Below, piece by piece: positions 1,209 through 35,285 of a stretch of DNA of 36,020 nt. Location: the NCBI RefSeq assembly GCF_004010195.1, contig NW_025213801.1, positions 1 to 36,020 of the forward strand, in the 5' to 3' direction. Made by a program: the position numbers and the translations under genes. The notes under the pieces are model-generated. The model made no database searches. It saw only the letters and a list, made by a program, of their open reading frames with translations, and was not told where the DNA came from. This DNA is from Chiloscyllium plagiosum (Eukaryota). Numbering within the stretch: position 1 is the stretch's first letter; each line of letters begins with the position of its first letter.

Positions 1209-1211
1209 TCT

Positions 1212-1393: not shown

Positions 1394-1455
1394 ATGTCTC
1401 TTAAAATTACCGAAGAGATTCTGGGGTTTGCAGATGATTCTCAAGTTTTCCAAGA
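1394..1455 (+). pseudogene. Probable first ~20 codons of the LTR element gag ORF, truncated by the CR1 fragment
   Basis: ATG at 1394, about 155 nt after the PBS, reading MSLKITEEILGFADDSQVFQ before the sequence switches to CR1. Positional inference; too short for domain evidence. Confidence 0.4.
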
Positions 1456-2048: not shown

Positions 2049-2415
2049 CAGCTGTGCTAACCACTGAACCACCGTGCTACCACCATGATGCAAACGAGGA
2101 ATTGACACCTGGGGCAGAACAGCTATAATCTTGTAGACTGTCAGGGAGGCTTGAAGAGCTAAATAGCCTACTTCTGCTCCTATTTCTTATTTTCTTACAA
2201 TCTTCGTCAGTAGATATGTGAATTAAAGGATCCCAGGAGTGGGACCATTGACATTGACATGGTGGGACCATGGATTGGATTTCAGTAGATTTCCAGAGTA
2301 GAATCCCAGAGAAAATATTTGAGATGAATTGCAGAAATATAATCCCCAGGTTGATAGCAGCAATCAGGCTATCTGACTTCCTTAACCACCACCTCCTTCC
2401 ACCTTTGATAGACTG

Positions 2416-2541
2416 TTGGGGGATGTTCTTTATGTTAGGGAATTGTCAGCTATGCTGATGGAATCATAGAATTCCTACAGTATGGAAACAGGCCATTTAG
2501 CTCAACAAGTCCATACAGACTCTCCAAAGAACATCCCCCAA
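2416..2541. repeat. Perfect 16-bp inverted repeat in each unit (2416-2431 / 2526-2541, 94-nt spacer)
   Basis: TTGGGGGATGTTCTTT at 2416-2431 is the exact reverse complement of AAAGAACATCCCCCAA at 2526-2541. Confidence 0.95.
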
Positions 2542-2825
2542 AGAACATCACACTCAGACTCAGCCCCCTACCTTATAACTTTGTATTTATCATGGCTAAT
2601 CAACCTAACCTACTCATCCCTGGACACTATGGCCAATTTAGTGTGACTAATTCACCTATCCTGCACATCATTGGACTGTGGGAGGAAACCGGAGTACCCG
2701 GATGAAACTCACACAGACAGAATGTGCAAACTCCACACAGACAGTTGCCCAAGGATGGAATTGAACCCGGGTCCCTGGCACTGTGAGGCAGCTGTGCTAA
2801 CCACTGAACCACCGTGCTACCACCA
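2461..2825 (-). mobile_element. HE1-like tRNA-derived V-SINE, first of 44 full copies (repeats every +740)
   Basis: The minus strand has a tRNA-like head GGTAGCACGGTGGTTCAGTGGTTAGCACAGCTGCCTCACAGTGCCAGGGACCCGGGTTCAATTCC, a V-domain TGTGTGGAGTTTGCACATTC...TCCGGTTTCCTCCCACAGTCCAA, and a CR1/HER-derived tail AATGGCCTGTTTCCATACTGTAGGAATTCTATGATTC. TGATG on both sides (2456-2460, 2826-2830) may be a target-site duplication. Confidence 0.9.
2757..2811 (-). promoter_or_regulatory. Internal RNA polymerase III type-2 promoter of the SINE: A box (2811-2801) and B box (2767-2757), present in each unit
   Basis: A box TGGTTCAGTGG is one mismatch from TRGCNNARYGG. B box GGTTCAATTCC matches GGTTCRANNCC. 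The 33-nt spacing is tRNA-like. Confidence 0.75.
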
Positions 2826-2937
2826 TGATGCAAACGAGGAATTGACACCTGGGGCAGAACAGCTATAATCTTGTAGACTGTCAGGGAGGCTTGAAGAGCT
2901 AAATAGCCTACTTCTGCTCCTATTTCTTATTTTCTTA
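2826..2937 (+). mobile_element. Old CR1-type LINE 3' UTR/tail within each unit (first occurrence 2086-2197)
   Basis: GGGGCAGAACAGCTATAATCTT...GGCTTGAAGAGCTAAATAGCCTACTTCTGCTCCTATTTCTTATTTTCTTA resembles a decayed CR1 3' end (GATCAGCCATGATCTT...GAATGGCCTACTCCTGCTCCTA plus a TTCTTA-type tail repeat). Confidence 0.75.
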
Positions 2938-5900
2938 CAATCTTCGTCAGTAGATATGTGAATTAAAGGATCCCAGGAGTGGGACCATTGACATTGACAT
3001 GGTGGGACCATGGATTGGATTTCAGTAGATTTCCAGAGTAGAATCCCAGAGAAAATATTTGAGATGAATTGCAGAAATATAATCCCCAGGTTGATAGCAG
3101 CAATCAGGCTATCTGACTTCCTTAACCACCACCTCCTTCCACCTTTGATAGACTGTTGGGGGATGTTCTTTATGTTAGGGAATTGTCAGCTATGCTGATG
3201 GAATCATAGAATTCCTACAGTATGGAAACAGGCCATTTAGCTCAACAAGTCCATACAGACTCTCCAAAGAACATCCCCCAAAGAACATCACACTCAGACT
3301 CAGCCCCCTACCTTATAACTTTGTATTTATCATGGCTAATCAACCTAACCTACTCATCCCTGGACACTATGGCCAATTTAGTGTGACTAATTCACCTATC
3401 CTGCACATCATTGGACTGTGGGAGGAAACCGGAGTACCCGGATGAAACTCACACAGACAGAATGTGCAAACTCCACACAGACAGTTGCCCAAGGATGGAA
3501 TTGAACCCGGGTCCCTGGCACTGTGAGGCAGCTGTGCTAACCACTGAACCACCGTGCTACCACCATGATGCAAACGAGGAATTGACACCTGGGGCAGAAC
3601 AGCTATAATCTTGTAGACTGTCAGGGAGGCTTGAAGAGCTAAATAGCCTACTTCTGCTCCTATTTCTTATTTTCTTACAATCTTCGTCAGTAGATATGTG
3701 AATTAAAGGATCCCAGGAGTGGGACCATTGACATTGACATGGTGGGACCATGGATTGGATTTCAGTAGATTTCCAGAGTAGAATCCCAGAGAAAATATTT
3801 GAGATGAATTGCAGAAATATAATCCCCAGGTTGATAGCAGCAATCAGGCTATCTGACTTCCTTAACCACCACCTCCTTCCACCTTTGATAGACTGTTGGG
3901 GGATGTTCTTTATGTTAGGGAATTGTCAGCTATGCTGATGGAATCATAGAATTCCTACAGTATGGAAACAGGCCATTTAGCTCAACAAGTCCATACAGAC
4001 TCTCCAAAGAACATCCCCCAAAGAACATCACACTCAGACTCAGCCCCCTACCTTATAACTTTGTATTTATCATGGCTAATCAACCTAACCTACTCATCCC
4101 TGGACACTATGGCCAATTTAGTGTGACTAATTCACCTATCCTGCACATCATTGGACTGTGGGAGGAAACCGGAGTACCCGGATGAAACTCACACAGACAG
4201 AATGTGCAAACTCCACACAGACAGTTGCCCAAGGATGGAATTGAACCCGGGTCCCTGGCACTGTGAGGCAGCTGTGCTAACCACTGAACCACCGTGCTAC
4301 CACCATGATGCAAACGAGGAATTGACACCTGGGGCAGAACAGCTATAATCTTGTAGACTGTCAGGGAGGCTTGAAGAGCTAAATAGCCTACTTCTGCTCC
4401 TATTTCTTATTTTCTTACAATCTTCGTCAGTAGATATGTGAATTAAAGGATCCCAGGAGTGGGACCATTGACATTGACATGGTGGGACCATGGATTGGAT
4501 TTCAGTAGATTTCCAGAGTAGAATCCCAGAGAAAATATTTGAGATGAATTGCAGAAATATAATCCCCAGGTTGATAGCAGCAATCAGGCTATCTGACTTC
4601 CTTAACCACCACCTCCTTCCACCTTTGATAGACTGTTGGGGGATGTTCTTTATGTTAGGGAATTGTCAGCTATGCTGATGGAATCATAGAATTCCTACAG
4701 TATGGAAACAGGCCATTTAGCTCAACAAGTCCATACAGACTCTCCAAAGAACATCCCCCAAAGAACATCACACTCAGACTCAGCCCCCTACCTTATAACT
4801 TTGTATTTATCATGGCTAATCAACCTAACCTACTCATCCCTGGACACTATGGCCAATTTAGTGTGACTAATTCACCTATCCTGCACATCATTGGACTGTG
4901 GGAGGAAACCGGAGTACCCGGATGAAACTCACACAGACAGAATGTGCAAACTCCACACAGACAGTTGCCCAAGGATGGAATTGAACCCGGGTCCCTGGCA
5001 CTGTGAGGCAGCTGTGCTAACCACTGAACCACCGTGCTACCACCATGATGCAAACGAGGAATTGACACCTGGGGCAGAACAGCTATAATCTTGTAGACTG
5101 TCAGGGAGGCTTGAAGAGCTAAATAGCCTACTTCTGCTCCTATTTCTTATTTTCTTACAATCTTCGTCAGTAGATATGTGAATTAAAGGATCCCAGGAGT
5201 GGGACCATTGACATTGACATGGTGGGACCATGGATTGGATTTCAGTAGATTTCCAGAGTAGAATCCCAGAGAAAATATTTGAGATGAATTGCAGAAATAT
5301 AATCCCCAGGTTGATAGCAGCAATCAGGCTATCTGACTTCCTTAACCACCACCTCCTTCCACCTTTGATAGACTGTTGGGGGATGTTCTTTATGTTAGGG
5401 AATTGTCAGCTATGCTGATGGAATCATAGAATTCCTACAGTATGGAAACAGGCCATTTAGCTCAACAAGTCCATACAGACTCTCCAAAGAACATCCCCCA
5501 AAGAACATCACACTCAGACTCAGCCCCCTACCTTATAACTTTGTATTTATCATGGCTAATCAACCTAACCTACTCATCCCTGGACACTATGGCCAATTTA
5601 GTGTGACTAATTCACCTATCCTGCACATCATTGGACTGTGGGAGGAAACCGGAGTACCCGGATGAAACTCACACAGACAGAATGTGCAAACTCCACACAG
5701 ACAGTTGCCCAAGGATGGAATTGAACCCGGGTCCCTGGCACTGTGAGGCAGCTGTGCTAACCACTGAACCACCGTGCTACCACCATGATGCAAACGAGGA
5801 ATTGACACCTGGGGCAGAACAGCTATAATCTTGTAGACTGTCAGGGAGGCTTGAAGAGCTAAATAGCCTACTTCTGCTCCTATTTCTTATTTTCTTACAA

Positions 5901-8900
5901 TCTTCGTCAGTAGATATGTGAATTAAAGGATCCCAGGAGTGGGACCATTGACATTGACATGGTGGGACCATGGATTGGATTTCAGTAGATTTCCAGAGTA
6001 GAATCCCAGAGAAAATATTTGAGATGAATTGCAGAAATATAATCCCCAGGTTGATAGCAGCAATCAGGCTATCTGACTTCCTTAACCACCACCTCCTTCC
6101 ACCTTTGATAGACTGTTGGGGGATGTTCTTTATGTTAGGGAATTGTCAGCTATGCTGATGGAATCATAGAATTCCTACAGTATGGAAACAGGCCATTTAG
6201 CTCAACAAGTCCATACAGACTCTCCAAAGAACATCCCCCAAAGAACATCACACTCAGACTCAGCCCCCTACCTTATAACTTTGTATTTATCATGGCTAAT
6301 CAACCTAACCTACTCATCCCTGGACACTATGGCCAATTTAGTGTGACTAATTCACCTATCCTGCACATCATTGGACTGTGGGAGGAAACCGGAGTACCCG
6401 GATGAAACTCACACAGACAGAATGTGCAAACTCCACACAGACAGTTGCCCAAGGATGGAATTGAACCCGGGTCCCTGGCACTGTGAGGCAGCTGTGCTAA
6501 CCACTGAACCACCGTGCTACCACCATGATGCAAACGAGGAATTGACACCTGGGGCAGAACAGCTATAATCTTGTAGACTGTCAGGGAGGCTTGAAGAGCT
6601 AAATAGCCTACTTCTGCTCCTATTTCTTATTTTCTTACAATCTTCGTCAGTAGATATGTGAATTAAAGGATCCCAGGAGTGGGACCATTGACATTGACAT
6701 GGTGGGACCATGGATTGGATTTCAGTAGATTTCCAGAGTAGAATCCCAGAGAAAATATTTGAGATGAATTGCAGAAATATAATCCCCAGGTTGATAGCAG
6801 CAATCAGGCTATCTGACTTCCTTAACCACCACCTCCTTCCACCTTTGATAGACTGTTGGGGGATGTTCTTTATGTTAGGGAATTGTCAGCTATGCTGATG
6901 GAATCATAGAATTCCTACAGTATGGAAACAGGCCATTTAGCTCAACAAGTCCATACAGACTCTCCAAAGAACATCCCCCAAAGAACATCACACTCAGACT
7001 CAGCCCCCTACCTTATAACTTTGTATTTATCATGGCTAATCAACCTAACCTACTCATCCCTGGACACTATGGCCAATTTAGTGTGACTAATTCACCTATC
7101 CTGCACATCATTGGACTGTGGGAGGAAACCGGAGTACCCGGATGAAACTCACACAGACAGAATGTGCAAACTCCACACAGACAGTTGCCCAAGGATGGAA
7201 TTGAACCCGGGTCCCTGGCACTGTGAGGCAGCTGTGCTAACCACTGAACCACCGTGCTACCACCATGATGCAAACGAGGAATTGACACCTGGGGCAGAAC
7301 AGCTATAATCTTGTAGACTGTCAGGGAGGCTTGAAGAGCTAAATAGCCTACTTCTGCTCCTATTTCTTATTTTCTTACAATCTTCGTCAGTAGATATGTG
7401 AATTAAAGGATCCCAGGAGTGGGACCATTGACATTGACATGGTGGGACCATGGATTGGATTTCAGTAGATTTCCAGAGTAGAATCCCAGAGAAAATATTT
7501 GAGATGAATTGCAGAAATATAATCCCCAGGTTGATAGCAGCAATCAGGCTATCTGACTTCCTTAACCACCACCTCCTTCCACCTTTGATAGACTGTTGGG
7601 GGATGTTCTTTATGTTAGGGAATTGTCAGCTATGCTGATGGAATCATAGAATTCCTACAGTATGGAAACAGGCCATTTAGCTCAACAAGTCCATACAGAC
7701 TCTCCAAAGAACATCCCCCAAAGAACATCACACTCAGACTCAGCCCCCTACCTTATAACTTTGTATTTATCATGGCTAATCAACCTAACCTACTCATCCC
7801 TGGACACTATGGCCAATTTAGTGTGACTAATTCACCTATCCTGCACATCATTGGACTGTGGGAGGAAACCGGAGTACCCGGATGAAACTCACACAGACAG
7901 AATGTGCAAACTCCACACAGACAGTTGCCCAAGGATGGAATTGAACCCGGGTCCCTGGCACTGTGAGGCAGCTGTGCTAACCACTGAACCACCGTGCTAC
8001 CACCATGATGCAAACGAGGAATTGACACCTGGGGCAGAACAGCTATAATCTTGTAGACTGTCAGGGAGGCTTGAAGAGCTAAATAGCCTACTTCTGCTCC
8101 TATTTCTTATTTTCTTACAATCTTCGTCAGTAGATATGTGAATTAAAGGATCCCAGGAGTGGGACCATTGACATTGACATGGTGGGACCATGGATTGGAT
8201 TTCAGTAGATTTCCAGAGTAGAATCCCAGAGAAAATATTTGAGATGAATTGCAGAAATATAATCCCCAGGTTGATAGCAGCAATCAGGCTATCTGACTTC
8301 CTTAACCACCACCTCCTTCCACCTTTGATAGACTGTTGGGGGATGTTCTTTATGTTAGGGAATTGTCAGCTATGCTGATGGAATCATAGAATTCCTACAG
8401 TATGGAAACAGGCCATTTAGCTCAACAAGTCCATACAGACTCTCCAAAGAACATCCCCCAAAGAACATCACACTCAGACTCAGCCCCCTACCTTATAACT
8501 TTGTATTTATCATGGCTAATCAACCTAACCTACTCATCCCTGGACACTATGGCCAATTTAGTGTGACTAATTCACCTATCCTGCACATCATTGGACTGTG
8601 GGAGGAAACCGGAGTACCCGGATGAAACTCACACAGACAGAATGTGCAAACTCCACACAGACAGTTGCCCAAGGATGGAATTGAACCCGGGTCCCTGGCA
8701 CTGTGAGGCAGCTGTGCTAACCACTGAACCACCGTGCTACCACCATGATGCAAACGAGGAATTGACACCTGGGGCAGAACAGCTATAATCTTGTAGACTG
8801 TCAGGGAGGCTTGAAGAGCTAAATAGCCTACTTCTGCTCCTATTTCTTATTTTCTTACAATCTTCGTCAGTAGATATGTGAATTAAAGGATCCCAGGAGT

Positions 8901-11900
8901 GGGACCATTGACATTGACATGGTGGGACCATGGATTGGATTTCAGTAGATTTCCAGAGTAGAATCCCAGAGAAAATATTTGAGATGAATTGCAGAAATAT
9001 AATCCCCAGGTTGATAGCAGCAATCAGGCTATCTGACTTCCTTAACCACCACCTCCTTCCACCTTTGATAGACTGTTGGGGGATGTTCTTTATGTTAGGG
9101 AATTGTCAGCTATGCTGATGGAATCATAGAATTCCTACAGTATGGAAACAGGCCATTTAGCTCAACAAGTCCATACAGACTCTCCAAAGAACATCCCCCA
9201 AAGAACATCACACTCAGACTCAGCCCCCTACCTTATAACTTTGTATTTATCATGGCTAATCAACCTAACCTACTCATCCCTGGACACTATGGCCAATTTA
9301 GTGTGACTAATTCACCTATCCTGCACATCATTGGACTGTGGGAGGAAACCGGAGTACCCGGATGAAACTCACACAGACAGAATGTGCAAACTCCACACAG
9401 ACAGTTGCCCAAGGATGGAATTGAACCCGGGTCCCTGGCACTGTGAGGCAGCTGTGCTAACCACTGAACCACCGTGCTACCACCATGATGCAAACGAGGA
9501 ATTGACACCTGGGGCAGAACAGCTATAATCTTGTAGACTGTCAGGGAGGCTTGAAGAGCTAAATAGCCTACTTCTGCTCCTATTTCTTATTTTCTTACAA
9601 TCTTCGTCAGTAGATATGTGAATTAAAGGATCCCAGGAGTGGGACCATTGACATTGACATGGTGGGACCATGGATTGGATTTCAGTAGATTTCCAGAGTA
9701 GAATCCCAGAGAAAATATTTGAGATGAATTGCAGAAATATAATCCCCAGGTTGATAGCAGCAATCAGGCTATCTGACTTCCTTAACCACCACCTCCTTCC
9801 ACCTTTGATAGACTGTTGGGGGATGTTCTTTATGTTAGGGAATTGTCAGCTATGCTGATGGAATCATAGAATTCCTACAGTATGGAAACAGGCCATTTAG
9901 CTCAACAAGTCCATACAGACTCTCCAAAGAACATCCCCCAAAGAACATCACACTCAGACTCAGCCCCCTACCTTATAACTTTGTATTTATCATGGCTAAT
10001 CAACCTAACCTACTCATCCCTGGACACTATGGCCAATTTAGTGTGACTAATTCACCTATCCTGCACATCATTGGACTGTGGGAGGAAACCGGAGTACCCG
10101 GATGAAACTCACACAGACAGAATGTGCAAACTCCACACAGACAGTTGCCCAAGGATGGAATTGAACCCGGGTCCCTGGCACTGTGAGGCAGCTGTGCTAA
10201 CCACTGAACCACCGTGCTACCACCATGATGCAAACGAGGAATTGACACCTGGGGCAGAACAGCTATAATCTTGTAGACTGTCAGGGAGGCTTGAAGAGCT
10301 AAATAGCCTACTTCTGCTCCTATTTCTTATTTTCTTACAATCTTCGTCAGTAGATATGTGAATTAAAGGATCCCAGGAGTGGGACCATTGACATTGACAT
10401 GGTGGGACCATGGATTGGATTTCAGTAGATTTCCAGAGTAGAATCCCAGAGAAAATATTTGAGATGAATTGCAGAAATATAATCCCCAGGTTGATAGCAG
10501 CAATCAGGCTATCTGACTTCCTTAACCACCACCTCCTTCCACCTTTGATAGACTGTTGGGGGATGTTCTTTATGTTAGGGAATTGTCAGCTATGCTGATG
10601 GAATCATAGAATTCCTACAGTATGGAAACAGGCCATTTAGCTCAACAAGTCCATACAGACTCTCCAAAGAACATCCCCCAAAGAACATCACACTCAGACT
10701 CAGCCCCCTACCTTATAACTTTGTATTTATCATGGCTAATCAACCTAACCTACTCATCCCTGGACACTATGGCCAATTTAGTGTGACTAATTCACCTATC
10801 CTGCACATCATTGGACTGTGGGAGGAAACCGGAGTACCCGGATGAAACTCACACAGACAGAATGTGCAAACTCCACACAGACAGTTGCCCAAGGATGGAA
10901 TTGAACCCGGGTCCCTGGCACTGTGAGGCAGCTGTGCTAACCACTGAACCACCGTGCTACCACCATGATGCAAACGAGGAATTGACACCTGGGGCAGAAC
11001 AGCTATAATCTTGTAGACTGTCAGGGAGGCTTGAAGAGCTAAATAGCCTACTTCTGCTCCTATTTCTTATTTTCTTACAATCTTCGTCAGTAGATATGTG
11101 AATTAAAGGATCCCAGGAGTGGGACCATTGACATTGACATGGTGGGACCATGGATTGGATTTCAGTAGATTTCCAGAGTAGAATCCCAGAGAAAATATTT
11201 GAGATGAATTGCAGAAATATAATCCCCAGGTTGATAGCAGCAATCAGGCTATCTGACTTCCTTAACCACCACCTCCTTCCACCTTTGATAGACTGTTGGG
11301 GGATGTTCTTTATGTTAGGGAATTGTCAGCTATGCTGATGGAATCATAGAATTCCTACAGTATGGAAACAGGCCATTTAGCTCAACAAGTCCATACAGAC
11401 TCTCCAAAGAACATCCCCCAAAGAACATCACACTCAGACTCAGCCCCCTACCTTATAACTTTGTATTTATCATGGCTAATCAACCTAACCTACTCATCCC
11501 TGGACACTATGGCCAATTTAGTGTGACTAATTCACCTATCCTGCACATCATTGGACTGTGGGAGGAAACCGGAGTACCCGGATGAAACTCACACAGACAG
11601 AATGTGCAAACTCCACACAGACAGTTGCCCAAGGATGGAATTGAACCCGGGTCCCTGGCACTGTGAGGCAGCTGTGCTAACCACTGAACCACCGTGCTAC
11701 CACCATGATGCAAACGAGGAATTGACACCTGGGGCAGAACAGCTATAATCTTGTAGACTGTCAGGGAGGCTTGAAGAGCTAAATAGCCTACTTCTGCTCC
11801 TATTTCTTATTTTCTTACAATCTTCGTCAGTAGATATGTGAATTAAAGGATCCCAGGAGTGGGACCATTGACATTGACATGGTGGGACCATGGATTGGAT

Positions 11901-14900
11901 TTCAGTAGATTTCCAGAGTAGAATCCCAGAGAAAATATTTGAGATGAATTGCAGAAATATAATCCCCAGGTTGATAGCAGCAATCAGGCTATCTGACTTC
12001 CTTAACCACCACCTCCTTCCACCTTTGATAGACTGTTGGGGGATGTTCTTTATGTTAGGGAATTGTCAGCTATGCTGATGGAATCATAGAATTCCTACAG
12101 TATGGAAACAGGCCATTTAGCTCAACAAGTCCATACAGACTCTCCAAAGAACATCCCCCAAAGAACATCACACTCAGACTCAGCCCCCTACCTTATAACT
12201 TTGTATTTATCATGGCTAATCAACCTAACCTACTCATCCCTGGACACTATGGCCAATTTAGTGTGACTAATTCACCTATCCTGCACATCATTGGACTGTG
12301 GGAGGAAACCGGAGTACCCGGATGAAACTCACACAGACAGAATGTGCAAACTCCACACAGACAGTTGCCCAAGGATGGAATTGAACCCGGGTCCCTGGCA
12401 CTGTGAGGCAGCTGTGCTAACCACTGAACCACCGTGCTACCACCATGATGCAAACGAGGAATTGACACCTGGGGCAGAACAGCTATAATCTTGTAGACTG
12501 TCAGGGAGGCTTGAAGAGCTAAATAGCCTACTTCTGCTCCTATTTCTTATTTTCTTACAATCTTCGTCAGTAGATATGTGAATTAAAGGATCCCAGGAGT
12601 GGGACCATTGACATTGACATGGTGGGACCATGGATTGGATTTCAGTAGATTTCCAGAGTAGAATCCCAGAGAAAATATTTGAGATGAATTGCAGAAATAT
12701 AATCCCCAGGTTGATAGCAGCAATCAGGCTATCTGACTTCCTTAACCACCACCTCCTTCCACCTTTGATAGACTGTTGGGGGATGTTCTTTATGTTAGGG
12801 AATTGTCAGCTATGCTGATGGAATCATAGAATTCCTACAGTATGGAAACAGGCCATTTAGCTCAACAAGTCCATACAGACTCTCCAAAGAACATCCCCCA
12901 AAGAACATCACACTCAGACTCAGCCCCCTACCTTATAACTTTGTATTTATCATGGCTAATCAACCTAACCTACTCATCCCTGGACACTATGGCCAATTTA
13001 GTGTGACTAATTCACCTATCCTGCACATCATTGGACTGTGGGAGGAAACCGGAGTACCCGGATGAAACTCACACAGACAGAATGTGCAAACTCCACACAG
13101 ACAGTTGCCCAAGGATGGAATTGAACCCGGGTCCCTGGCACTGTGAGGCAGCTGTGCTAACCACTGAACCACCGTGCTACCACCATGATGCAAACGAGGA
13201 ATTGACACCTGGGGCAGAACAGCTATAATCTTGTAGACTGTCAGGGAGGCTTGAAGAGCTAAATAGCCTACTTCTGCTCCTATTTCTTATTTTCTTACAA
13301 TCTTCGTCAGTAGATATGTGAATTAAAGGATCCCAGGAGTGGGACCATTGACATTGACATGGTGGGACCATGGATTGGATTTCAGTAGATTTCCAGAGTA
13401 GAATCCCAGAGAAAATATTTGAGATGAATTGCAGAAATATAATCCCCAGGTTGATAGCAGCAATCAGGCTATCTGACTTCCTTAACCACCACCTCCTTCC
13501 ACCTTTGATAGACTGTTGGGGGATGTTCTTTATGTTAGGGAATTGTCAGCTATGCTGATGGAATCATAGAATTCCTACAGTATGGAAACAGGCCATTTAG
13601 CTCAACAAGTCCATACAGACTCTCCAAAGAACATCCCCCAAAGAACATCACACTCAGACTCAGCCCCCTACCTTATAACTTTGTATTTATCATGGCTAAT
13701 CAACCTAACCTACTCATCCCTGGACACTATGGCCAATTTAGTGTGACTAATTCACCTATCCTGCACATCATTGGACTGTGGGAGGAAACCGGAGTACCCG
13801 GATGAAACTCACACAGACAGAATGTGCAAACTCCACACAGACAGTTGCCCAAGGATGGAATTGAACCCGGGTCCCTGGCACTGTGAGGCAGCTGTGCTAA
13901 CCACTGAACCACCGTGCTACCACCATGATGCAAACGAGGAATTGACACCTGGGGCAGAACAGCTATAATCTTGTAGACTGTCAGGGAGGCTTGAAGAGCT
14001 AAATAGCCTACTTCTGCTCCTATTTCTTATTTTCTTACAATCTTCGTCAGTAGATATGTGAATTAAAGGATCCCAGGAGTGGGACCATTGACATTGACAT
14101 GGTGGGACCATGGATTGGATTTCAGTAGATTTCCAGAGTAGAATCCCAGAGAAAATATTTGAGATGAATTGCAGAAATATAATCCCCAGGTTGATAGCAG
14201 CAATCAGGCTATCTGACTTCCTTAACCACCACCTCCTTCCACCTTTGATAGACTGTTGGGGGATGTTCTTTATGTTAGGGAATTGTCAGCTATGCTGATG
14301 GAATCATAGAATTCCTACAGTATGGAAACAGGCCATTTAGCTCAACAAGTCCATACAGACTCTCCAAAGAACATCCCCCAAAGAACATCACACTCAGACT
14401 CAGCCCCCTACCTTATAACTTTGTATTTATCATGGCTAATCAACCTAACCTACTCATCCCTGGACACTATGGCCAATTTAGTGTGACTAATTCACCTATC
14501 CTGCACATCATTGGACTGTGGGAGGAAACCGGAGTACCCGGATGAAACTCACACAGACAGAATGTGCAAACTCCACACAGACAGTTGCCCAAGGATGGAA
14601 TTGAACCCGGGTCCCTGGCACTGTGAGGCAGCTGTGCTAACCACTGAACCACCGTGCTACCACCATGATGCAAACGAGGAATTGACACCTGGGGCAGAAC
14701 AGCTATAATCTTGTAGACTGTCAGGGAGGCTTGAAGAGCTAAATAGCCTACTTCTGCTCCTATTTCTTATTTTCTTACAATCTTCGTCAGTAGATATGTG
14801 AATTAAAGGATCCCAGGAGTGGGACCATTGACATTGACATGGTGGGACCATGGATTGGATTTCAGTAGATTTCCAGAGTAGAATCCCAGAGAAAATATTT

Positions 14901-20900: not shown

Positions 20901-23900
20901 ACCTTTGATAGACTGTTGGGGGATGTTCTTTATGTTAGGGAATTGTCAGCTATGCTGATGGAATCATAGAATTCCTACAGTATGGAAACAGGCCATTTAG
21001 CTCAACAAGTCCATACAGACTCTCCAAAGAACATCCCCCAAAGAACATCACACTCAGACTCAGCCCCCTACCTTATAACTTTGTATTTATCATGGCTAAT
21101 CAACCTAACCTACTCATCCCTGGACACTATGGCCAATTTAGTGTGACTAATTCACCTATCCTGCACATCATTGGACTGTGGGAGGAAACCGGAGTACCCG
21201 GATGAAACTCACACAGACAGAATGTGCAAACTCCACACAGACAGTTGCCCAAGGATGGAATTGAACCCGGGTCCCTGGCACTGTGAGGCAGCTGTGCTAA
21301 CCACTGAACCACCGTGCTACCACCATGATGCAAACGAGGAATTGACACCTGGGGCAGAACAGCTATAATCTTGTAGACTGTCAGGGAGGCTTGAAGAGCT
21401 AAATAGCCTACTTCTGCTCCTATTTCTTATTTTCTTACAATCTTCGTCAGTAGATATGTGAATTAAAGGATCCCAGGAGTGGGACCATTGACATTGACAT
21501 GGTGGGACCATGGATTGGATTTCAGTAGATTTCCAGAGTAGAATCCCAGAGAAAATATTTGAGATGAATTGCAGAAATATAATCCCCAGGTTGATAGCAG
21601 CAATCAGGCTATCTGACTTCCTTAACCACCACCTCCTTCCACCTTTGATAGACTGTTGGGGGATGTTCTTTATGTTAGGGAATTGTCAGCTATGCTGATG
21701 GAATCATAGAATTCCTACAGTATGGAAACAGGCCATTTAGCTCAACAAGTCCATACAGACTCTCCAAAGAACATCCCCCAAAGAACATCACACTCAGACT
21801 CAGCCCCCTACCTTATAACTTTGTATTTATCATGGCTAATCAACCTAACCTACTCATCCCTGGACACTATGGCCAATTTAGTGTGACTAATTCACCTATC
21901 CTGCACATCATTGGACTGTGGGAGGAAACCGGAGTACCCGGATGAAACTCACACAGACAGAATGTGCAAACTCCACACAGACAGTTGCCCAAGGATGGAA
22001 TTGAACCCGGGTCCCTGGCACTGTGAGGCAGCTGTGCTAACCACTGAACCACCGTGCTACCACCATGATGCAAACGAGGAATTGACACCTGGGGCAGAAC
22101 AGCTATAATCTTGTAGACTGTCAGGGAGGCTTGAAGAGCTAAATAGCCTACTTCTGCTCCTATTTCTTATTTTCTTACAATCTTCGTCAGTAGATATGTG
22201 AATTAAAGGATCCCAGGAGTGGGACCATTGACATTGACATGGTGGGACCATGGATTGGATTTCAGTAGATTTCCAGAGTAGAATCCCAGAGAAAATATTT
22301 GAGATGAATTGCAGAAATATAATCCCCAGGTTGATAGCAGCAATCAGGCTATCTGACTTCCTTAACCACCACCTCCTTCCACCTTTGATAGACTGTTGGG
22401 GGATGTTCTTTATGTTAGGGAATTGTCAGCTATGCTGATGGAATCATAGAATTCCTACAGTATGGAAACAGGCCATTTAGCTCAACAAGTCCATACAGAC
22501 TCTCCAAAGAACATCCCCCAAAGAACATCACACTCAGACTCAGCCCCCTACCTTATAACTTTGTATTTATCATGGCTAATCAACCTAACCTACTCATCCC
22601 TGGACACTATGGCCAATTTAGTGTGACTAATTCACCTATCCTGCACATCATTGGACTGTGGGAGGAAACCGGAGTACCCGGATGAAACTCACACAGACAG
22701 AATGTGCAAACTCCACACAGACAGTTGCCCAAGGATGGAATTGAACCCGGGTCCCTGGCACTGTGAGGCAGCTGTGCTAACCACTGAACCACCGTGCTAC
22801 CACCATGATGCAAACGAGGAATTGACACCTGGGGCAGAACAGCTATAATCTTGTAGACTGTCAGGGAGGCTTGAAGAGCTAAATAGCCTACTTCTGCTCC
22901 TATTTCTTATTTTCTTACAATCTTCGTCAGTAGATATGTGAATTAAAGGATCCCAGGAGTGGGACCATTGACATTGACATGGTGGGACCATGGATTGGAT
23001 TTCAGTAGATTTCCAGAGTAGAATCCCAGAGAAAATATTTGAGATGAATTGCAGAAATATAATCCCCAGGTTGATAGCAGCAATCAGGCTATCTGACTTC
23101 CTTAACCACCACCTCCTTCCACCTTTGATAGACTGTTGGGGGATGTTCTTTATGTTAGGGAATTGTCAGCTATGCTGATGGAATCATAGAATTCCTACAG
23201 TATGGAAACAGGCCATTTAGCTCAACAAGTCCATACAGACTCTCCAAAGAACATCCCCCAAAGAACATCACACTCAGACTCAGCCCCCTACCTTATAACT
23301 TTGTATTTATCATGGCTAATCAACCTAACCTACTCATCCCTGGACACTATGGCCAATTTAGTGTGACTAATTCACCTATCCTGCACATCATTGGACTGTG
23401 GGAGGAAACCGGAGTACCCGGATGAAACTCACACAGACAGAATGTGCAAACTCCACACAGACAGTTGCCCAAGGATGGAATTGAACCCGGGTCCCTGGCA
23501 CTGTGAGGCAGCTGTGCTAACCACTGAACCACCGTGCTACCACCATGATGCAAACGAGGAATTGACACCTGGGGCAGAACAGCTATAATCTTGTAGACTG
23601 TCAGGGAGGCTTGAAGAGCTAAATAGCCTACTTCTGCTCCTATTTCTTATTTTCTTACAATCTTCGTCAGTAGATATGTGAATTAAAGGATCCCAGGAGT
23701 GGGACCATTGACATTGACATGGTGGGACCATGGATTGGATTTCAGTAGATTTCCAGAGTAGAATCCCAGAGAAAATATTTGAGATGAATTGCAGAAATAT
23801 AATCCCCAGGTTGATAGCAGCAATCAGGCTATCTGACTTCCTTAACCACCACCTCCTTCCACCTTTGATAGACTGTTGGGGGATGTTCTTTATGTTAGGG

Positions 23901-26900
23901 AATTGTCAGCTATGCTGATGGAATCATAGAATTCCTACAGTATGGAAACAGGCCATTTAGCTCAACAAGTCCATACAGACTCTCCAAAGAACATCCCCCA
24001 AAGAACATCACACTCAGACTCAGCCCCCTACCTTATAACTTTGTATTTATCATGGCTAATCAACCTAACCTACTCATCCCTGGACACTATGGCCAATTTA
24101 GTGTGACTAATTCACCTATCCTGCACATCATTGGACTGTGGGAGGAAACCGGAGTACCCGGATGAAACTCACACAGACAGAATGTGCAAACTCCACACAG
24201 ACAGTTGCCCAAGGATGGAATTGAACCCGGGTCCCTGGCACTGTGAGGCAGCTGTGCTAACCACTGAACCACCGTGCTACCACCATGATGCAAACGAGGA
24301 ATTGACACCTGGGGCAGAACAGCTATAATCTTGTAGACTGTCAGGGAGGCTTGAAGAGCTAAATAGCCTACTTCTGCTCCTATTTCTTATTTTCTTACAA
24401 TCTTCGTCAGTAGATATGTGAATTAAAGGATCCCAGGAGTGGGACCATTGACATTGACATGGTGGGACCATGGATTGGATTTCAGTAGATTTCCAGAGTA
24501 GAATCCCAGAGAAAATATTTGAGATGAATTGCAGAAATATAATCCCCAGGTTGATAGCAGCAATCAGGCTATCTGACTTCCTTAACCACCACCTCCTTCC
24601 ACCTTTGATAGACTGTTGGGGGATGTTCTTTATGTTAGGGAATTGTCAGCTATGCTGATGGAATCATAGAATTCCTACAGTATGGAAACAGGCCATTTAG
24701 CTCAACAAGTCCATACAGACTCTCCAAAGAACATCCCCCAAAGAACATCACACTCAGACTCAGCCCCCTACCTTATAACTTTGTATTTATCATGGCTAAT
24801 CAACCTAACCTACTCATCCCTGGACACTATGGCCAATTTAGTGTGACTAATTCACCTATCCTGCACATCATTGGACTGTGGGAGGAAACCGGAGTACCCG
24901 GATGAAACTCACACAGACAGAATGTGCAAACTCCACACAGACAGTTGCCCAAGGATGGAATTGAACCCGGGTCCCTGGCACTGTGAGGCAGCTGTGCTAA
25001 CCACTGAACCACCGTGCTACCACCATGATGCAAACGAGGAATTGACACCTGGGGCAGAACAGCTATAATCTTGTAGACTGTCAGGGAGGCTTGAAGAGCT
25101 AAATAGCCTACTTCTGCTCCTATTTCTTATTTTCTTACAATCTTCGTCAGTAGATATGTGAATTAAAGGATCCCAGGAGTGGGACCATTGACATTGACAT
25201 GGTGGGACCATGGATTGGATTTCAGTAGATTTCCAGAGTAGAATCCCAGAGAAAATATTTGAGATGAATTGCAGAAATATAATCCCCAGGTTGATAGCAG
25301 CAATCAGGCTATCTGACTTCCTTAACCACCACCTCCTTCCACCTTTGATAGACTGTTGGGGGATGTTCTTTATGTTAGGGAATTGTCAGCTATGCTGATG
25401 GAATCATAGAATTCCTACAGTATGGAAACAGGCCATTTAGCTCAACAAGTCCATACAGACTCTCCAAAGAACATCCCCCAAAGAACATCACACTCAGACT
25501 CAGCCCCCTACCTTATAACTTTGTATTTATCATGGCTAATCAACCTAACCTACTCATCCCTGGACACTATGGCCAATTTAGTGTGACTAATTCACCTATC
25601 CTGCACATCATTGGACTGTGGGAGGAAACCGGAGTACCCGGATGAAACTCACACAGACAGAATGTGCAAACTCCACACAGACAGTTGCCCAAGGATGGAA
25701 TTGAACCCGGGTCCCTGGCACTGTGAGGCAGCTGTGCTAACCACTGAACCACCGTGCTACCACCATGATGCAAACGAGGAATTGACACCTGGGGCAGAAC
25801 AGCTATAATCTTGTAGACTGTCAGGGAGGCTTGAAGAGCTAAATAGCCTACTTCTGCTCCTATTTCTTATTTTCTTACAATCTTCGTCAGTAGATATGTG
25901 AATTAAAGGATCCCAGGAGTGGGACCATTGACATTGACATGGTGGGACCATGGATTGGATTTCAGTAGATTTCCAGAGTAGAATCCCAGAGAAAATATTT
26001 GAGATGAATTGCAGAAATATAATCCCCAGGTTGATAGCAGCAATCAGGCTATCTGACTTCCTTAACCACCACCTCCTTCCACCTTTGATAGACTGTTGGG
26101 GGATGTTCTTTATGTTAGGGAATTGTCAGCTATGCTGATGGAATCATAGAATTCCTACAGTATGGAAACAGGCCATTTAGCTCAACAAGTCCATACAGAC
26201 TCTCCAAAGAACATCCCCCAAAGAACATCACACTCAGACTCAGCCCCCTACCTTATAACTTTGTATTTATCATGGCTAATCAACCTAACCTACTCATCCC
26301 TGGACACTATGGCCAATTTAGTGTGACTAATTCACCTATCCTGCACATCATTGGACTGTGGGAGGAAACCGGAGTACCCGGATGAAACTCACACAGACAG
26401 AATGTGCAAACTCCACACAGACAGTTGCCCAAGGATGGAATTGAACCCGGGTCCCTGGCACTGTGAGGCAGCTGTGCTAACCACTGAACCACCGTGCTAC
26501 CACCATGATGCAAACGAGGAATTGACACCTGGGGCAGAACAGCTATAATCTTGTAGACTGTCAGGGAGGCTTGAAGAGCTAAATAGCCTACTTCTGCTCC
26601 TATTTCTTATTTTCTTACAATCTTCGTCAGTAGATATGTGAATTAAAGGATCCCAGGAGTGGGACCATTGACATTGACATGGTGGGACCATGGATTGGAT
26701 TTCAGTAGATTTCCAGAGTAGAATCCCAGAGAAAATATTTGAGATGAATTGCAGAAATATAATCCCCAGGTTGATAGCAGCAATCAGGCTATCTGACTTC
26801 CTTAACCACCACCTCCTTCCACCTTTGATAGACTGTTGGGGGATGTTCTTTATGTTAGGGAATTGTCAGCTATGCTGATGGAATCATAGAATTCCTACAG

Positions 26901-29900
26901 TATGGAAACAGGCCATTTAGCTCAACAAGTCCATACAGACTCTCCAAAGAACATCCCCCAAAGAACATCACACTCAGACTCAGCCCCCTACCTTATAACT
27001 TTGTATTTATCATGGCTAATCAACCTAACCTACTCATCCCTGGACACTATGGCCAATTTAGTGTGACTAATTCACCTATCCTGCACATCATTGGACTGTG
27101 GGAGGAAACCGGAGTACCCGGATGAAACTCACACAGACAGAATGTGCAAACTCCACACAGACAGTTGCCCAAGGATGGAATTGAACCCGGGTCCCTGGCA
27201 CTGTGAGGCAGCTGTGCTAACCACTGAACCACCGTGCTACCACCATGATGCAAACGAGGAATTGACACCTGGGGCAGAACAGCTATAATCTTGTAGACTG
27301 TCAGGGAGGCTTGAAGAGCTAAATAGCCTACTTCTGCTCCTATTTCTTATTTTCTTACAATCTTCGTCAGTAGATATGTGAATTAAAGGATCCCAGGAGT
27401 GGGACCATTGACATTGACATGGTGGGACCATGGATTGGATTTCAGTAGATTTCCAGAGTAGAATCCCAGAGAAAATATTTGAGATGAATTGCAGAAATAT
27501 AATCCCCAGGTTGATAGCAGCAATCAGGCTATCTGACTTCCTTAACCACCACCTCCTTCCACCTTTGATAGACTGTTGGGGGATGTTCTTTATGTTAGGG
27601 AATTGTCAGCTATGCTGATGGAATCATAGAATTCCTACAGTATGGAAACAGGCCATTTAGCTCAACAAGTCCATACAGACTCTCCAAAGAACATCCCCCA
27701 AAGAACATCACACTCAGACTCAGCCCCCTACCTTATAACTTTGTATTTATCATGGCTAATCAACCTAACCTACTCATCCCTGGACACTATGGCCAATTTA
27801 GTGTGACTAATTCACCTATCCTGCACATCATTGGACTGTGGGAGGAAACCGGAGTACCCGGATGAAACTCACACAGACAGAATGTGCAAACTCCACACAG
27901 ACAGTTGCCCAAGGATGGAATTGAACCCGGGTCCCTGGCACTGTGAGGCAGCTGTGCTAACCACTGAACCACCGTGCTACCACCATGATGCAAACGAGGA
28001 ATTGACACCTGGGGCAGAACAGCTATAATCTTGTAGACTGTCAGGGAGGCTTGAAGAGCTAAATAGCCTACTTCTGCTCCTATTTCTTATTTTCTTACAA
28101 TCTTCGTCAGTAGATATGTGAATTAAAGGATCCCAGGAGTGGGACCATTGACATTGACATGGTGGGACCATGGATTGGATTTCAGTAGATTTCCAGAGTA
28201 GAATCCCAGAGAAAATATTTGAGATGAATTGCAGAAATATAATCCCCAGGTTGATAGCAGCAATCAGGCTATCTGACTTCCTTAACCACCACCTCCTTCC
28301 ACCTTTGATAGACTGTTGGGGGATGTTCTTTATGTTAGGGAATTGTCAGCTATGCTGATGGAATCATAGAATTCCTACAGTATGGAAACAGGCCATTTAG
28401 CTCAACAAGTCCATACAGACTCTCCAAAGAACATCCCCCAAAGAACATCACACTCAGACTCAGCCCCCTACCTTATAACTTTGTATTTATCATGGCTAAT
28501 CAACCTAACCTACTCATCCCTGGACACTATGGCCAATTTAGTGTGACTAATTCACCTATCCTGCACATCATTGGACTGTGGGAGGAAACCGGAGTACCCG
28601 GATGAAACTCACACAGACAGAATGTGCAAACTCCACACAGACAGTTGCCCAAGGATGGAATTGAACCCGGGTCCCTGGCACTGTGAGGCAGCTGTGCTAA
28701 CCACTGAACCACCGTGCTACCACCATGATGCAAACGAGGAATTGACACCTGGGGCAGAACAGCTATAATCTTGTAGACTGTCAGGGAGGCTTGAAGAGCT
28801 AAATAGCCTACTTCTGCTCCTATTTCTTATTTTCTTACAATCTTCGTCAGTAGATATGTGAATTAAAGGATCCCAGGAGTGGGACCATTGACATTGACAT
28901 GGTGGGACCATGGATTGGATTTCAGTAGATTTCCAGAGTAGAATCCCAGAGAAAATATTTGAGATGAATTGCAGAAATATAATCCCCAGGTTGATAGCAG
29001 CAATCAGGCTATCTGACTTCCTTAACCACCACCTCCTTCCACCTTTGATAGACTGTTGGGGGATGTTCTTTATGTTAGGGAATTGTCAGCTATGCTGATG
29101 GAATCATAGAATTCCTACAGTATGGAAACAGGCCATTTAGCTCAACAAGTCCATACAGACTCTCCAAAGAACATCCCCCAAAGAACATCACACTCAGACT
29201 CAGCCCCCTACCTTATAACTTTGTATTTATCATGGCTAATCAACCTAACCTACTCATCCCTGGACACTATGGCCAATTTAGTGTGACTAATTCACCTATC
29301 CTGCACATCATTGGACTGTGGGAGGAAACCGGAGTACCCGGATGAAACTCACACAGACAGAATGTGCAAACTCCACACAGACAGTTGCCCAAGGATGGAA
29401 TTGAACCCGGGTCCCTGGCACTGTGAGGCAGCTGTGCTAACCACTGAACCACCGTGCTACCACCATGATGCAAACGAGGAATTGACACCTGGGGCAGAAC
29501 AGCTATAATCTTGTAGACTGTCAGGGAGGCTTGAAGAGCTAAATAGCCTACTTCTGCTCCTATTTCTTATTTTCTTACAATCTTCGTCAGTAGATATGTG
29601 AATTAAAGGATCCCAGGAGTGGGACCATTGACATTGACATGGTGGGACCATGGATTGGATTTCAGTAGATTTCCAGAGTAGAATCCCAGAGAAAATATTT
29701 GAGATGAATTGCAGAAATATAATCCCCAGGTTGATAGCAGCAATCAGGCTATCTGACTTCCTTAACCACCACCTCCTTCCACCTTTGATAGACTGTTGGG
29801 GGATGTTCTTTATGTTAGGGAATTGTCAGCTATGCTGATGGAATCATAGAATTCCTACAGTATGGAAACAGGCCATTTAGCTCAACAAGTCCATACAGAC

Positions 29901-32900
29901 TCTCCAAAGAACATCCCCCAAAGAACATCACACTCAGACTCAGCCCCCTACCTTATAACTTTGTATTTATCATGGCTAATCAACCTAACCTACTCATCCC
30001 TGGACACTATGGCCAATTTAGTGTGACTAATTCACCTATCCTGCACATCATTGGACTGTGGGAGGAAACCGGAGTACCCGGATGAAACTCACACAGACAG
30101 AATGTGCAAACTCCACACAGACAGTTGCCCAAGGATGGAATTGAACCCGGGTCCCTGGCACTGTGAGGCAGCTGTGCTAACCACTGAACCACCGTGCTAC
30201 CACCATGATGCAAACGAGGAATTGACACCTGGGGCAGAACAGCTATAATCTTGTAGACTGTCAGGGAGGCTTGAAGAGCTAAATAGCCTACTTCTGCTCC
30301 TATTTCTTATTTTCTTACAATCTTCGTCAGTAGATATGTGAATTAAAGGATCCCAGGAGTGGGACCATTGACATTGACATGGTGGGACCATGGATTGGAT
30401 TTCAGTAGATTTCCAGAGTAGAATCCCAGAGAAAATATTTGAGATGAATTGCAGAAATATAATCCCCAGGTTGATAGCAGCAATCAGGCTATCTGACTTC
30501 CTTAACCACCACCTCCTTCCACCTTTGATAGACTGTTGGGGGATGTTCTTTATGTTAGGGAATTGTCAGCTATGCTGATGGAATCATAGAATTCCTACAG
30601 TATGGAAACAGGCCATTTAGCTCAACAAGTCCATACAGACTCTCCAAAGAACATCCCCCAAAGAACATCACACTCAGACTCAGCCCCCTACCTTATAACT
30701 TTGTATTTATCATGGCTAATCAACCTAACCTACTCATCCCTGGACACTATGGCCAATTTAGTGTGACTAATTCACCTATCCTGCACATCATTGGACTGTG
30801 GGAGGAAACCGGAGTACCCGGATGAAACTCACACAGACAGAATGTGCAAACTCCACACAGACAGTTGCCCAAGGATGGAATTGAACCCGGGTCCCTGGCA
30901 CTGTGAGGCAGCTGTGCTAACCACTGAACCACCGTGCTACCACCATGATGCAAACGAGGAATTGACACCTGGGGCAGAACAGCTATAATCTTGTAGACTG
31001 TCAGGGAGGCTTGAAGAGCTAAATAGCCTACTTCTGCTCCTATTTCTTATTTTCTTACAATCTTCGTCAGTAGATATGTGAATTAAAGGATCCCAGGAGT
31101 GGGACCATTGACATTGACATGGTGGGACCATGGATTGGATTTCAGTAGATTTCCAGAGTAGAATCCCAGAGAAAATATTTGAGATGAATTGCAGAAATAT
31201 AATCCCCAGGTTGATAGCAGCAATCAGGCTATCTGACTTCCTTAACCACCACCTCCTTCCACCTTTGATAGACTGTTGGGGGATGTTCTTTATGTTAGGG
31301 AATTGTCAGCTATGCTGATGGAATCATAGAATTCCTACAGTATGGAAACAGGCCATTTAGCTCAACAAGTCCATACAGACTCTCCAAAGAACATCCCCCA
31401 AAGAACATCACACTCAGACTCAGCCCCCTACCTTATAACTTTGTATTTATCATGGCTAATCAACCTAACCTACTCATCCCTGGACACTATGGCCAATTTA
31501 GTGTGACTAATTCACCTATCCTGCACATCATTGGACTGTGGGAGGAAACCGGAGTACCCGGATGAAACTCACACAGACAGAATGTGCAAACTCCACACAG
31601 ACAGTTGCCCAAGGATGGAATTGAACCCGGGTCCCTGGCACTGTGAGGCAGCTGTGCTAACCACTGAACCACCGTGCTACCACCATGATGCAAACGAGGA
31701 ATTGACACCTGGGGCAGAACAGCTATAATCTTGTAGACTGTCAGGGAGGCTTGAAGAGCTAAATAGCCTACTTCTGCTCCTATTTCTTATTTTCTTACAA
31801 TCTTCGTCAGTAGATATGTGAATTAAAGGATCCCAGGAGTGGGACCATTGACATTGACATGGTGGGACCATGGATTGGATTTCAGTAGATTTCCAGAGTA
31901 GAATCCCAGAGAAAATATTTGAGATGAATTGCAGAAATATAATCCCCAGGTTGATAGCAGCAATCAGGCTATCTGACTTCCTTAACCACCACCTCCTTCC
32001 ACCTTTGATAGACTGTTGGGGGATGTTCTTTATGTTAGGGAATTGTCAGCTATGCTGATGGAATCATAGAATTCCTACAGTATGGAAACAGGCCATTTAG
32101 CTCAACAAGTCCATACAGACTCTCCAAAGAACATCCCCCAAAGAACATCACACTCAGACTCAGCCCCCTACCTTATAACTTTGTATTTATCATGGCTAAT
32201 CAACCTAACCTACTCATCCCTGGACACTATGGCCAATTTAGTGTGACTAATTCACCTATCCTGCACATCATTGGACTGTGGGAGGAAACCGGAGTACCCG
32301 GATGAAACTCACACAGACAGAATGTGCAAACTCCACACAGACAGTTGCCCAAGGATGGAATTGAACCCGGGTCCCTGGCACTGTGAGGCAGCTGTGCTAA
32401 CCACTGAACCACCGTGCTACCACCATGATGCAAACGAGGAATTGACACCTGGGGCAGAACAGCTATAATCTTGTAGACTGTCAGGGAGGCTTGAAGAGCT
32501 AAATAGCCTACTTCTGCTCCTATTTCTTATTTTCTTACAATCTTCGTCAGTAGATATGTGAATTAAAGGATCCCAGGAGTGGGACCATTGACATTGACAT
32601 GGTGGGACCATGGATTGGATTTCAGTAGATTTCCAGAGTAGAATCCCAGAGAAAATATTTGAGATGAATTGCAGAAATATAATCCCCAGGTTGATAGCAG
32701 CAATCAGGCTATCTGACTTCCTTAACCACCACCTCCTTCCACCTTTGATAGACTGTTGGGGGATGTTCTTTATGTTAGGGAATTGTCAGCTATGCTGATG
32801 GAATCATAGAATTCCTACAGTATGGAAACAGGCCATTTAGCTCAACAAGTCCATACAGACTCTCCAAAGAACATCCCCCAAAGAACATCACACTCAGACT

Positions 32901-34280
32901 CAGCCCCCTACCTTATAACTTTGTATTTATCATGGCTAATCAACCTAACCTACTCATCCCTGGACACTATGGCCAATTTAGTGTGACTAATTCACCTATC
33001 CTGCACATCATTGGACTGTGGGAGGAAACCGGAGTACCCGGATGAAACTCACACAGACAGAATGTGCAAACTCCACACAGACAGTTGCCCAAGGATGGAA
33101 TTGAACCCGGGTCCCTGGCACTGTGAGGCAGCTGTGCTAACCACTGAACCACCGTGCTACCACCATGATGCAAACGAGGAATTGACACCTGGGGCAGAAC
33201 AGCTATAATCTTGTAGACTGTCAGGGAGGCTTGAAGAGCTAAATAGCCTACTTCTGCTCCTATTTCTTATTTTCTTACAATCTTCGTCAGTAGATATGTG
33301 AATTAAAGGATCCCAGGAGTGGGACCATTGACATTGACATGGTGGGACCATGGATTGGATTTCAGTAGATTTCCAGAGTAGAATCCCAGAGAAAATATTT
33401 GAGATGAATTGCAGAAATATAATCCCCAGGTTGATAGCAGCAATCAGGCTATCTGACTTCCTTAACCACCACCTCCTTCCACCTTTGATAGACTGTTGGG
33501 GGATGTTCTTTATGTTAGGGAATTGTCAGCTATGCTGATGGAATCATAGAATTCCTACAGTATGGAAACAGGCCATTTAGCTCAACAAGTCCATACAGAC
33601 TCTCCAAAGAACATCCCCCAAAGAACATCACACTCAGACTCAGCCCCCTACCTTATAACTTTGTATTTATCATGGCTAATCAACCTAACCTACTCATCCC
33701 TGGACACTATGGCCAATTTAGTGTGACTAATTCACCTATCCTGCACATCATTGGACTGTGGGAGGAAACCGGAGTACCCGGATGAAACTCACACAGACAG
33801 AATGTGCAAACTCCACACAGACAGTTGCCCAAGGATGGAATTGAACCCGGGTCCCTGGCACTGTGAGGCAGCTGTGCTAACCACTGAACCACCGTGCTAC
33901 CACCATGATGCAAACGAGGAATTGACACCTGGGGCAGAACAGCTATAATCTTGTAGACTGTCAGGGAGGCTTGAAGAGCTAAATAGCCTACTTCTGCTCC
34001 TATTTCTTATTTTCTTACAATCTTCGTCAGTAGATATGTGAATTAAAGGATCCCAGGAGTGGGACCATTGACATTGACATGGTGGGACCATGGATTGGAT
34101 TTCAGTAGATTTCCAGAGTAGAATCCCAGAGAAAATATTTGAGATGAATTGCAGAAATATAATCCCCAGGTTGATAGCAGCAATCAGGCTATCTGACTTC
34201 CTTAACCACCACCTCCTTCCACCTTTGATAGACTGTTGGGGGATGTTCTTTATGTTAGGGAATTGTCAGCTATGCTGATG

Positions 34281-34645
34281 GAATCATAGAATTCCTACAG
34301 TATGGAAACAGGCCATTTAGCTCAACAAGTCCATACAGACTCTCCAAAGAACATCCCCCAAAGAACATCACACTCAGACTCAGCCCCCTACCTTATAACT
34401 TTGTATTTATCATGGCTAATCAACCTAACCTACTCATCCCTGGACACTATGGCCAATTTAGTGTGACTAATTCACCTATCCTGCACATCATTGGACTGTG
34501 GGAGGAAACCGGAGTACCCGGATGAAACTCACACAGACAGAATGTGCAAACTCCACACAGACAGTTGCCCAAGGATGGAATTGAACCCGGGTCCCTGGCA
34601 CTGTGAGGCAGCTGTGCTAACCACTGAACCACCGTGCTACCACCA
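34281..34645 (-). mobile_element. Last (44th) full HE1-like SINE copy of the array
   Basis: Same sequence as 2461-2825 offset by 43 x 740. Confidence 0.9.
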
Positions 34646-35211
34646 TGATGCAAACGAGGAATTGACACCTGGGGCAGAACAGCTATAATCTTGTAGACTG
34701 TCAGGGAGGCTTGAAGAGCTAAATAGCCTACTTCTGCTCCTATTTCTTATTTTCTTACAATCTTCGTCAGTAGATATGTGAATTAAAGGATCCCAGGAGT
34801 GGGACCATTGACATTGACATGGTGGGACCATGGATTGGATTTCAGTAGATTTCCAGAGTAGAATCCCAGAGAAAATATTTGAGATGAATTGCAGAAATAT
34901 AATCCCCAGGTTGATAGCAGCAATCAGGCTATCTGACTTCCTTAACCACCACCTCCTTCCACCTTTGATAGACTGTGGTTGCAATATAATATCTATGGAA
35001 TACACCATAGCAACTCCAAGGCTCGTTTGACATAATCTTCAGACATCCCATATCCAATATCTTGAAAGTCAAAGGCAACAGATGTATTCAGAAAACCATC
35101 TACTCCAAGTTTCTTCCAAATCATACTGCATCCTAATGACATGGACATGTATCTGTGTTCCTTCACAATGTTGAAAATAAATGTAAAAAGAACATTGGGT
35201 GCTGAATTTTC

Positions 35212-35285
35212 AGAAAAGCCCTTCTGCTTCTGCTCCTCGGATGCTGCCTGGCCTGCTGTGTTTCTCCAACACCACACTTTTCAAC
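35212..35285 (+). mobile_element. Short fragment of a common fish/shark interspersed repeat (Penelope pLTR-derived type)
   Basis: CTGCTCCTCGGATGCTGCCTGGCCTGCTGTGTTTCTCCAACACCACACTTTT is recognised from memory as the segment that normally follows a CTGAAGAAGGGCTTTTGCCCGAAACGTC hammerhead motif. That core is absent here. Confidence 0.5.

Follow-up and report, generated by a model that had tools for sequence, protein, structure and literature searches.

A perfect 740-bp tandem array in a Chiloscyllium plagiosum contig: a nascent satellite or, more probably, an assembly loop around a small duplication

The window analysed here, that is, the whole stretch of 36,020 nucleotides (assembly GCF_004010195.1, contig NW_025213801.1, positions 1 to 36,020 of the forward strand), contains a perfect tandem array of a 740-bp unit from position 2049 to 34976 on the plus strand. 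Each base from 2049 to 34236 was compared with the base 740 positions further on, and 0 mismatches were found in 32,188 comparisons. The array spans 32,928 bp and its copy count is 44.497 (44 units and 368 bp), so that it has the form (A+B) x 44 + A, in which part A is 2049–2416 (368 bp) and part B is 2417–2788 (372 bp). A preliminary description, made from the letters of the window, had reported an exact 740-bp period with no indel or substitution, about 44.5 units over this interval, and sharp edges without degenerate copies, and the comparison at the 740-bp offset bore this out. The BamHI and EcoRI sites that it had placed in each unit also recur at 740-bp spacing in the array: GGATCC was found 45 times, first at 2228, and GAATTC 44 times within the array, first at 2469, with EcoRI sites outside the array at 374 and 35372. 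The window contains no N. The sequence shares with satellites a long head-to-tail array; monomer variants and diverged edge copies are absent, as there is no variant and the edges are sharp.

The unit had been described as aged, consisting of a CpG-depleted SINE and a CR1 tail, and its observed/expected CpG ratio of 0.16, the Pol III boxes and a CR1-type match agree with this description. A tRNA-type SINE was located at 2462–2820 on the minus strand by motif count and tail match; it has both Pol III boxes (A and B), and its 3' tail is of CR1 type. The box scan of the array, performed with motifs that we take to be the A and B boxes of Pol III promoters, gave 45 A boxes and 44 B boxes, which combine on the minus strand into 44 A–B pairs with a spacing of 44 nt, and the only unpaired A box is that at 2071. 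Positions 2426–2513 match the 3' end of a CR1-type element (L002) at 61 of 88 positions (E = 7e-6), and the SINE tail aligned to the CR1 end in the right flank with a local score of 20. The element therefore has what characterises a SINE, Pol III boxes at its 5' end and a 3' tail in common with a CR1-type LINE, and we presume that it may be HE1-like (tRNA-derived, with a CR1-type tail). This SINE copy carries a private 14-bp direct duplication at 2524–2551. According to the box scan and tail alignment, part A (2049–2416, plus strand) comprises the 5' end of the SINE head, which lies on the minus strand with its A box at 2071, together with a decayed tail of CR1 type at about 2100–2190 and old DNA. 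Because the SINE continues without a break from B into A, this phase of the array is natural DNA and, judged from the sequence, the non-natural joint inside the unit is that from A to B. The CR1-type tails of the unit are opposed, and 25 nt of them (2150–2174 and 2485–2509) are 80% complementary, with a local score of 18.5; they form a possible hairpin, which could have stalled a fork. A coding role of the unit was rejected, the longest frames being 88–122 aa and the one frame scanned giving no family match, and the Rfam search of positions 1–3600 of the window returned 0 matches.

At the A-to-B junction (2416–2431, plus strand, once per unit), the inverted-repeat search revealed a perfect 16-bp inverted copy of 2526–2541, and the repeat pairs placed this template on the minus strand across the private duplication. 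No other inverted match in the unit is as long as this patch, the arms of which lie 94 nt apart, and the first base of the patch is the last base of part A (a 1-bp overlap), which is the last base common to the unit and to the right-hand end of the array. Among 5000 units simulated with a similar composition, 9 had a perfect inverted repeat of at least 16 bases at any position. The hairpin fold of the junction gave a z of −5.6, a value that follows from the inverted repeat itself and is no separate line of evidence. Since the template covers the duplication that is private to this SINE copy, the patch was copied from this very locus. The microhomology at the tandem junction is 1 bp beside the patch.

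By comparison with known systems, an inverted patch of this kind is typical of template-switch repair in vivo, and it is also known from library chimeras. In SD-MMEJ by polymerase theta, as described in PMC5728401, an inverted motif likewise reaches precisely to the junction and has its source near the break; here the motif is a perfect 16 bp. The snap-back primer repeats of that pathway lie mostly less than 10 bp apart, and up to about 25–30 bp (PMC5728401), whereas the arms in our unit lie 94 nt apart. In our unit, primer and newly made bases are indistinguishable without the ancestral allele. Chimeric library molecules, after shearing and end repair, also carry a short inverted copy of nearby DNA at the molecule end (PMC10908179); they would explain the patch, but do not by themselves explain why the sequence returns to where part A ends.

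The right join (34976/34977) is probably the natural continuation of part A. The CpG ratio of the right flank is 0.14, near the 0.16 of the unit, and the flank contains the decayed 3' end of a CR1 element (the ORF2 C-terminus and tail) at 35238–35381 and about 35500–35590. A putative decayed LINE frame runs across the join. A search of 1.84 billion proteins with a stop-masked frame gave 2 matches, both to unrelated repetitive proteins. No match spanning the right join was obtained when 52 vertebrate CR1 loci were compared by blastn, nhmmer, tblastn and tblastx. A profile built from 120 CR1 C-termini matched only at the CR1 end near 35280–35385, and not across the right join. The CR1-like tail of part A aligned to the right-flank tail with a score of 10.5, which lies within the shuffles (99th percentile 13.5).

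To this we can add the public sequencing runs, in which the words of a query consisting of one unit and the right flank were counted (24 runs listed). Eight runs of organism A, from 5 samples and 2 studies, contain 0.54–0.81 of the query words. For the 5 runs at 0.76–0.81, hand arithmetic requires that about 40–50% or more of the unit words and about 60% or more of the flank words are present. Ten runs of organisms B and C contain 0.11–0.29, small shares that carry no evidential weight, and 3 small runs of organism A contain 0.00, which is no proof of absence; the other 3 of the 24 are raw-read runs outside the word index. These word shares show that the locus exists; they are silent on copy number and on the joins, and the best runs may include the source animal. 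The shared low CpG, the co-occurrence of unit and flank in the same public runs and the marks of breakage at the other two joins make the right join probably natural. By elimination, and from the shared CpG loss, the putative LINE frame and the word shares, part A most likely runs on into the right flank.

These observations bear on the proposal that the array would be a young cluster of an older satellite family, with larger diverged arrays elsewhere in the genome. Satellites are described as seeding new clusters by microhomology-mediated repair, and Rsp-like clusters resemble the present locus in that the tandem units are bordered by a tidy junction on one side and a variable one on the other (10.1101/846238). 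Those clusters, attributed to microhomology repair and circular DNA, belong however to an existing family with variants (10.1101/846238), whereas our unit looks local and is variant-free. The old DNA of the unit appears to pass into the right flank without interruption. The patch, moreover, has as its source a duplication private to this SINE copy, and this speaks for an origin at the locus itself. We therefore regard this proposal as very improbable.

Three stretches of the left flank have CpG ratios of 0.50, 0.73 (651–1440) and 0.59, unlike the unit, and the value at 651–1440 is much higher than those of the unit and the right flank. A GIY-YIG frame lies at 260–613 on the minus strand (a weak Pfam match, E = 0.003, below the cut-off; 1 of 6 frames matched), which is presumably the endonuclease end of a Penelope-like element. 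At 794–880 on the plus strand there is an 87-bp open stretch with AG before it and GT after it, like a symmetric exon, and no relatives of this possible exon were found. Positions 1450–2048 (plus strand) are an internal fragment of a CR1 LINE ORF2 without its 3' half. Alignment to a CR1-type protein of 942 aa (P0002) covers residues 297–413 with 65–71% identity and stops exactly at 2048, and the same LINE matches Heterodontus and Stegostoma proteins with 66–67% identity. The flanks had been called unique on both sides; this does not hold, the left one containing the CR1 ORF2 fragment and the GIY-YIG frame, and the right one the decayed CR1 3' end.

The left join (2048/2049), located by homologue alignment and box scan, cuts the CR1 ORF2 after NEYF and the SINE between its B and A box. 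After NEYF, 3 of the 3 homologues shown continue with Phe-Ser, so that the next base is expected to be T or A, and not the C with which the array starts. The unit's own upstream bases also differ from the left flank. For these two reasons the join is blunt, with a microhomology of 0 bp as deduced from the codons of the homologues. The edge lies within CR1, at a seemingly arbitrary phase and without N. LINE copies normally retain their 3' end, and therefore the missing half of the CR1 copy was removed or was never assembled. The preliminary description had one segment amplified in place between its flanks. On the left, this is contradicted by an edge that cuts both the CR1 ORF2 and the SINE head without microhomology, and a second join is therefore needed.

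About 190 bp from this edge, inside the CR1 ORF2, the repeat scan found a second loop, a 62-bp unit repeated 5.1 times (1543–1861, plus strand), which shifts the frame. Copies 1–4 differ from copy 5 by a single base, where copy 5 encodes Ile and copies 1–4 encode Thr; five homologues have Leu, Ile or Met. Two template copies suffice to write every word of this loop with a length of at most 27 bases, and the difference between copy 5 and copies 1–4 suits a two-copy original of which the first copy was re-read. A short shared overlap of GAGA type is seen at the joint of this loop. If one event made both repeats, the chance that the lone variant falls in the 62-bp loop (about 310 bp) and not in the 32,928 bp of the array is 0.009, a post hoc figure that depends on one change.

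The absence of variants has to be read against the mutation rate of sharks, which was reported as 7e-10 per base and generation in the epaulette shark (PMC10587355). With this rate, zero variants in 32,928 bp limit the age of a single burst to at most about 130,000 generations (65,000–650,000 over the rate interval). Identity of the copies therefore neither proves recency nor condemns the array. The statement that the amplification occurred very recently is weakly constrained by the zero variants, which allow as many as about 130,000 generations (65,000–650,000).

Copy number is a separate matter. A stretch of 1.2 copies already contains every 150-base word of the array, and one of 21.3 copies every 15-kb word, and thus only molecules longer than 33 kb fix the number of units. 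Accurate long reads are described as failing on exact repeats (10.1101/2022.06.24.497523). Where an exact repeat exceeds the read length, the assembly graph contains a cycle of which the turns are not fixed by the reads (10.1101/2022.06.24.497523; PMC6550390). The present locus resembles such a loop tangle, in that the exact array exceeds the length of accurate reads and the A-to-B junction would close a cycle. It differs in that the available descriptions leave a gap (10.1101/2022.06.24.497523; PMC6550390) and not 44 written copies; there is no N here.

From the sequence at hand, we consider it somewhat more likely than not that an assembler or gap filler unrolled a read-graph loop made by a low-copy duplication, in which case most of the copies were likely computed. 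For the copy number and the left edge, assembly looping over a small duplication would be more likely than a newborn satellite. In this scheme the true locus would have B, then A, then the right flank, with other DNA upstream of B. The A-to-B junction would stem from a duplication, probably real, in which B+A was repeated in tandem by snap-back or template-switch repair, or else from a chimeric library molecule. The junction would form a cycle in the read graph, the turns of which are uncountable with reads shorter than the array, and the assembler or gap filler would have gone leftwards from the right flank for about 44 turns, writing the same consensus unit each time. Short-read contigs commonly end in CR1 copies. 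The left contig would end within its CR1 copy, with small-scale looping there to give the 62 bp x 5.1, and the unrolled cycle would have been abutted to it, with the loss of the remainder of CR1 and of whatever lay upstream of B.

Several observations support this unrolling of a loop. The zero differences in 32.9 kb are given by a consensus loop by construction, and an array of exact copies that is longer than accurate reads is what is found. The left edge is blunt, at a seemingly arbitrary phase and inside an interspersed repeat, the CR1 ORF2, and the second near-perfect loop 190 bp from this edge is explicable by a two-copy template. On the other hand, an unclosed assembly gap would normally leave N, and the window is without N. 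The identity of the copies is unsuspicious in a shark, since a real amplification as old as about 130,000 generations would still be free of variants, and a patch of this inverted kind is what repair in vivo typically leaves behind. Ultra-long reads, if they went into this assembly, could reach across 33 kb. Gap fillers are known to extend contigs with local reads (PMC6550390), but the literature search gave no gap filler that writes tens of perfect copies, and the available part of 10.1101/2021.02.26.432990 holds nothing on gap fillers writing long perfect arrays; this step is our inference. An assembly artefact, which the preliminary description could not exclude, has become the leading, if still putative, reading.

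The alternative in which the array is real and arose by a single germline amplification would be a rolling circle of 44 turns followed by a blunt join to CR1, and we hold it to be possible but unlikely. A broken fork end would have snapped back, copied 16 bases off the opposite strand and re-annealed 740 bp behind; alternatively, an excised 740-bp circle would have served as the rolling template, and the join to CR1 would have deleted the intervening DNA. A rolling circle is the predicted outcome when the template switch leads to a site that lies behind the break within one molecule (PMC2621351), and the quadruplication of human PLP1 was interpreted as rolling-circle amplification (PMC4352052). 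One repeated junction, a non-integer copy number and a separate exit junction are what rolling-circle MMBIR predicts (PMC2621351; PMC4352052), and our locus has a single repeated junction, a partial last turn, a separate exit at 2048/2049 and a template switch at the junction, as in MMBIR/FoSTeS. The templated inverted patch, the lack of N at either join and the slow mutation rate of sharks, which preserves a perfect array for long, also speak for a real burst. However, the exit join is without microhomology, and microhomology at the junctions, expected for rolling-circle MMBIR, was 0 bp on the left (by codon inference) and 1 bp at the tandem junction. The unit of 740 bp contrasts with about 280 kb, and the 44.5 copies, known here from the assembled sequence, with 4 copies in the vertebrate germline case (PMC4352052), while 20–100 copies come from E. 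coli (PMC2621351). Further, the 62-bp loop with its one variant in about 310 bp needs a second explanation, and 33 kb of perfect repeats would be difficult to assemble in the first place.

Of the earlier proposal of a single rolling-circle burst, a replicative origin from a single template fits the repeated junction, the non-integer copies and the templated insert. The complete version of such an origin, would be the one-step birth of a satellite in a vertebrate germline. A snap-back scar would have closed 740 bp of neutral retroposon debris into a circle, one rolling run would have yielded the 44.5 copies, and these would have been sealed bluntly to CR1, so that the entry and exit junctions and the unmutated copies can all still be read. 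We consider this version unlikely.

A third possibility is that a real array grew stepwise by unequal exchange from a first duplication, and that its variants were flattened by consensus or polishing and its length was guessed by the assembler. The patch at the junction suits a real founding duplication, and copy number is unreadable from short or medium reads. The blunt left join in CR1 would require an added deletion or a mis-join, however, and no diverged edge copies are present. We regard such a history as improbable.

Two facts are new, namely the inverted patch between successive units and the left edge at which CR1 and SINE are both bluntly cut; every reading considered here is of a known kind. 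The birth of satellites from single-copy DNA by rolling circle is an old proposal. If the array is an unrolled loop, perfect arrays in this assembly and the DNA adjoining them would be untrustworthy, and what remains would be an ordinary small duplication with a templated insertion. A real array would document the start of a satellite with unusual clarity, and the entry scar, the exit join and the copy number would all be typable in a population.
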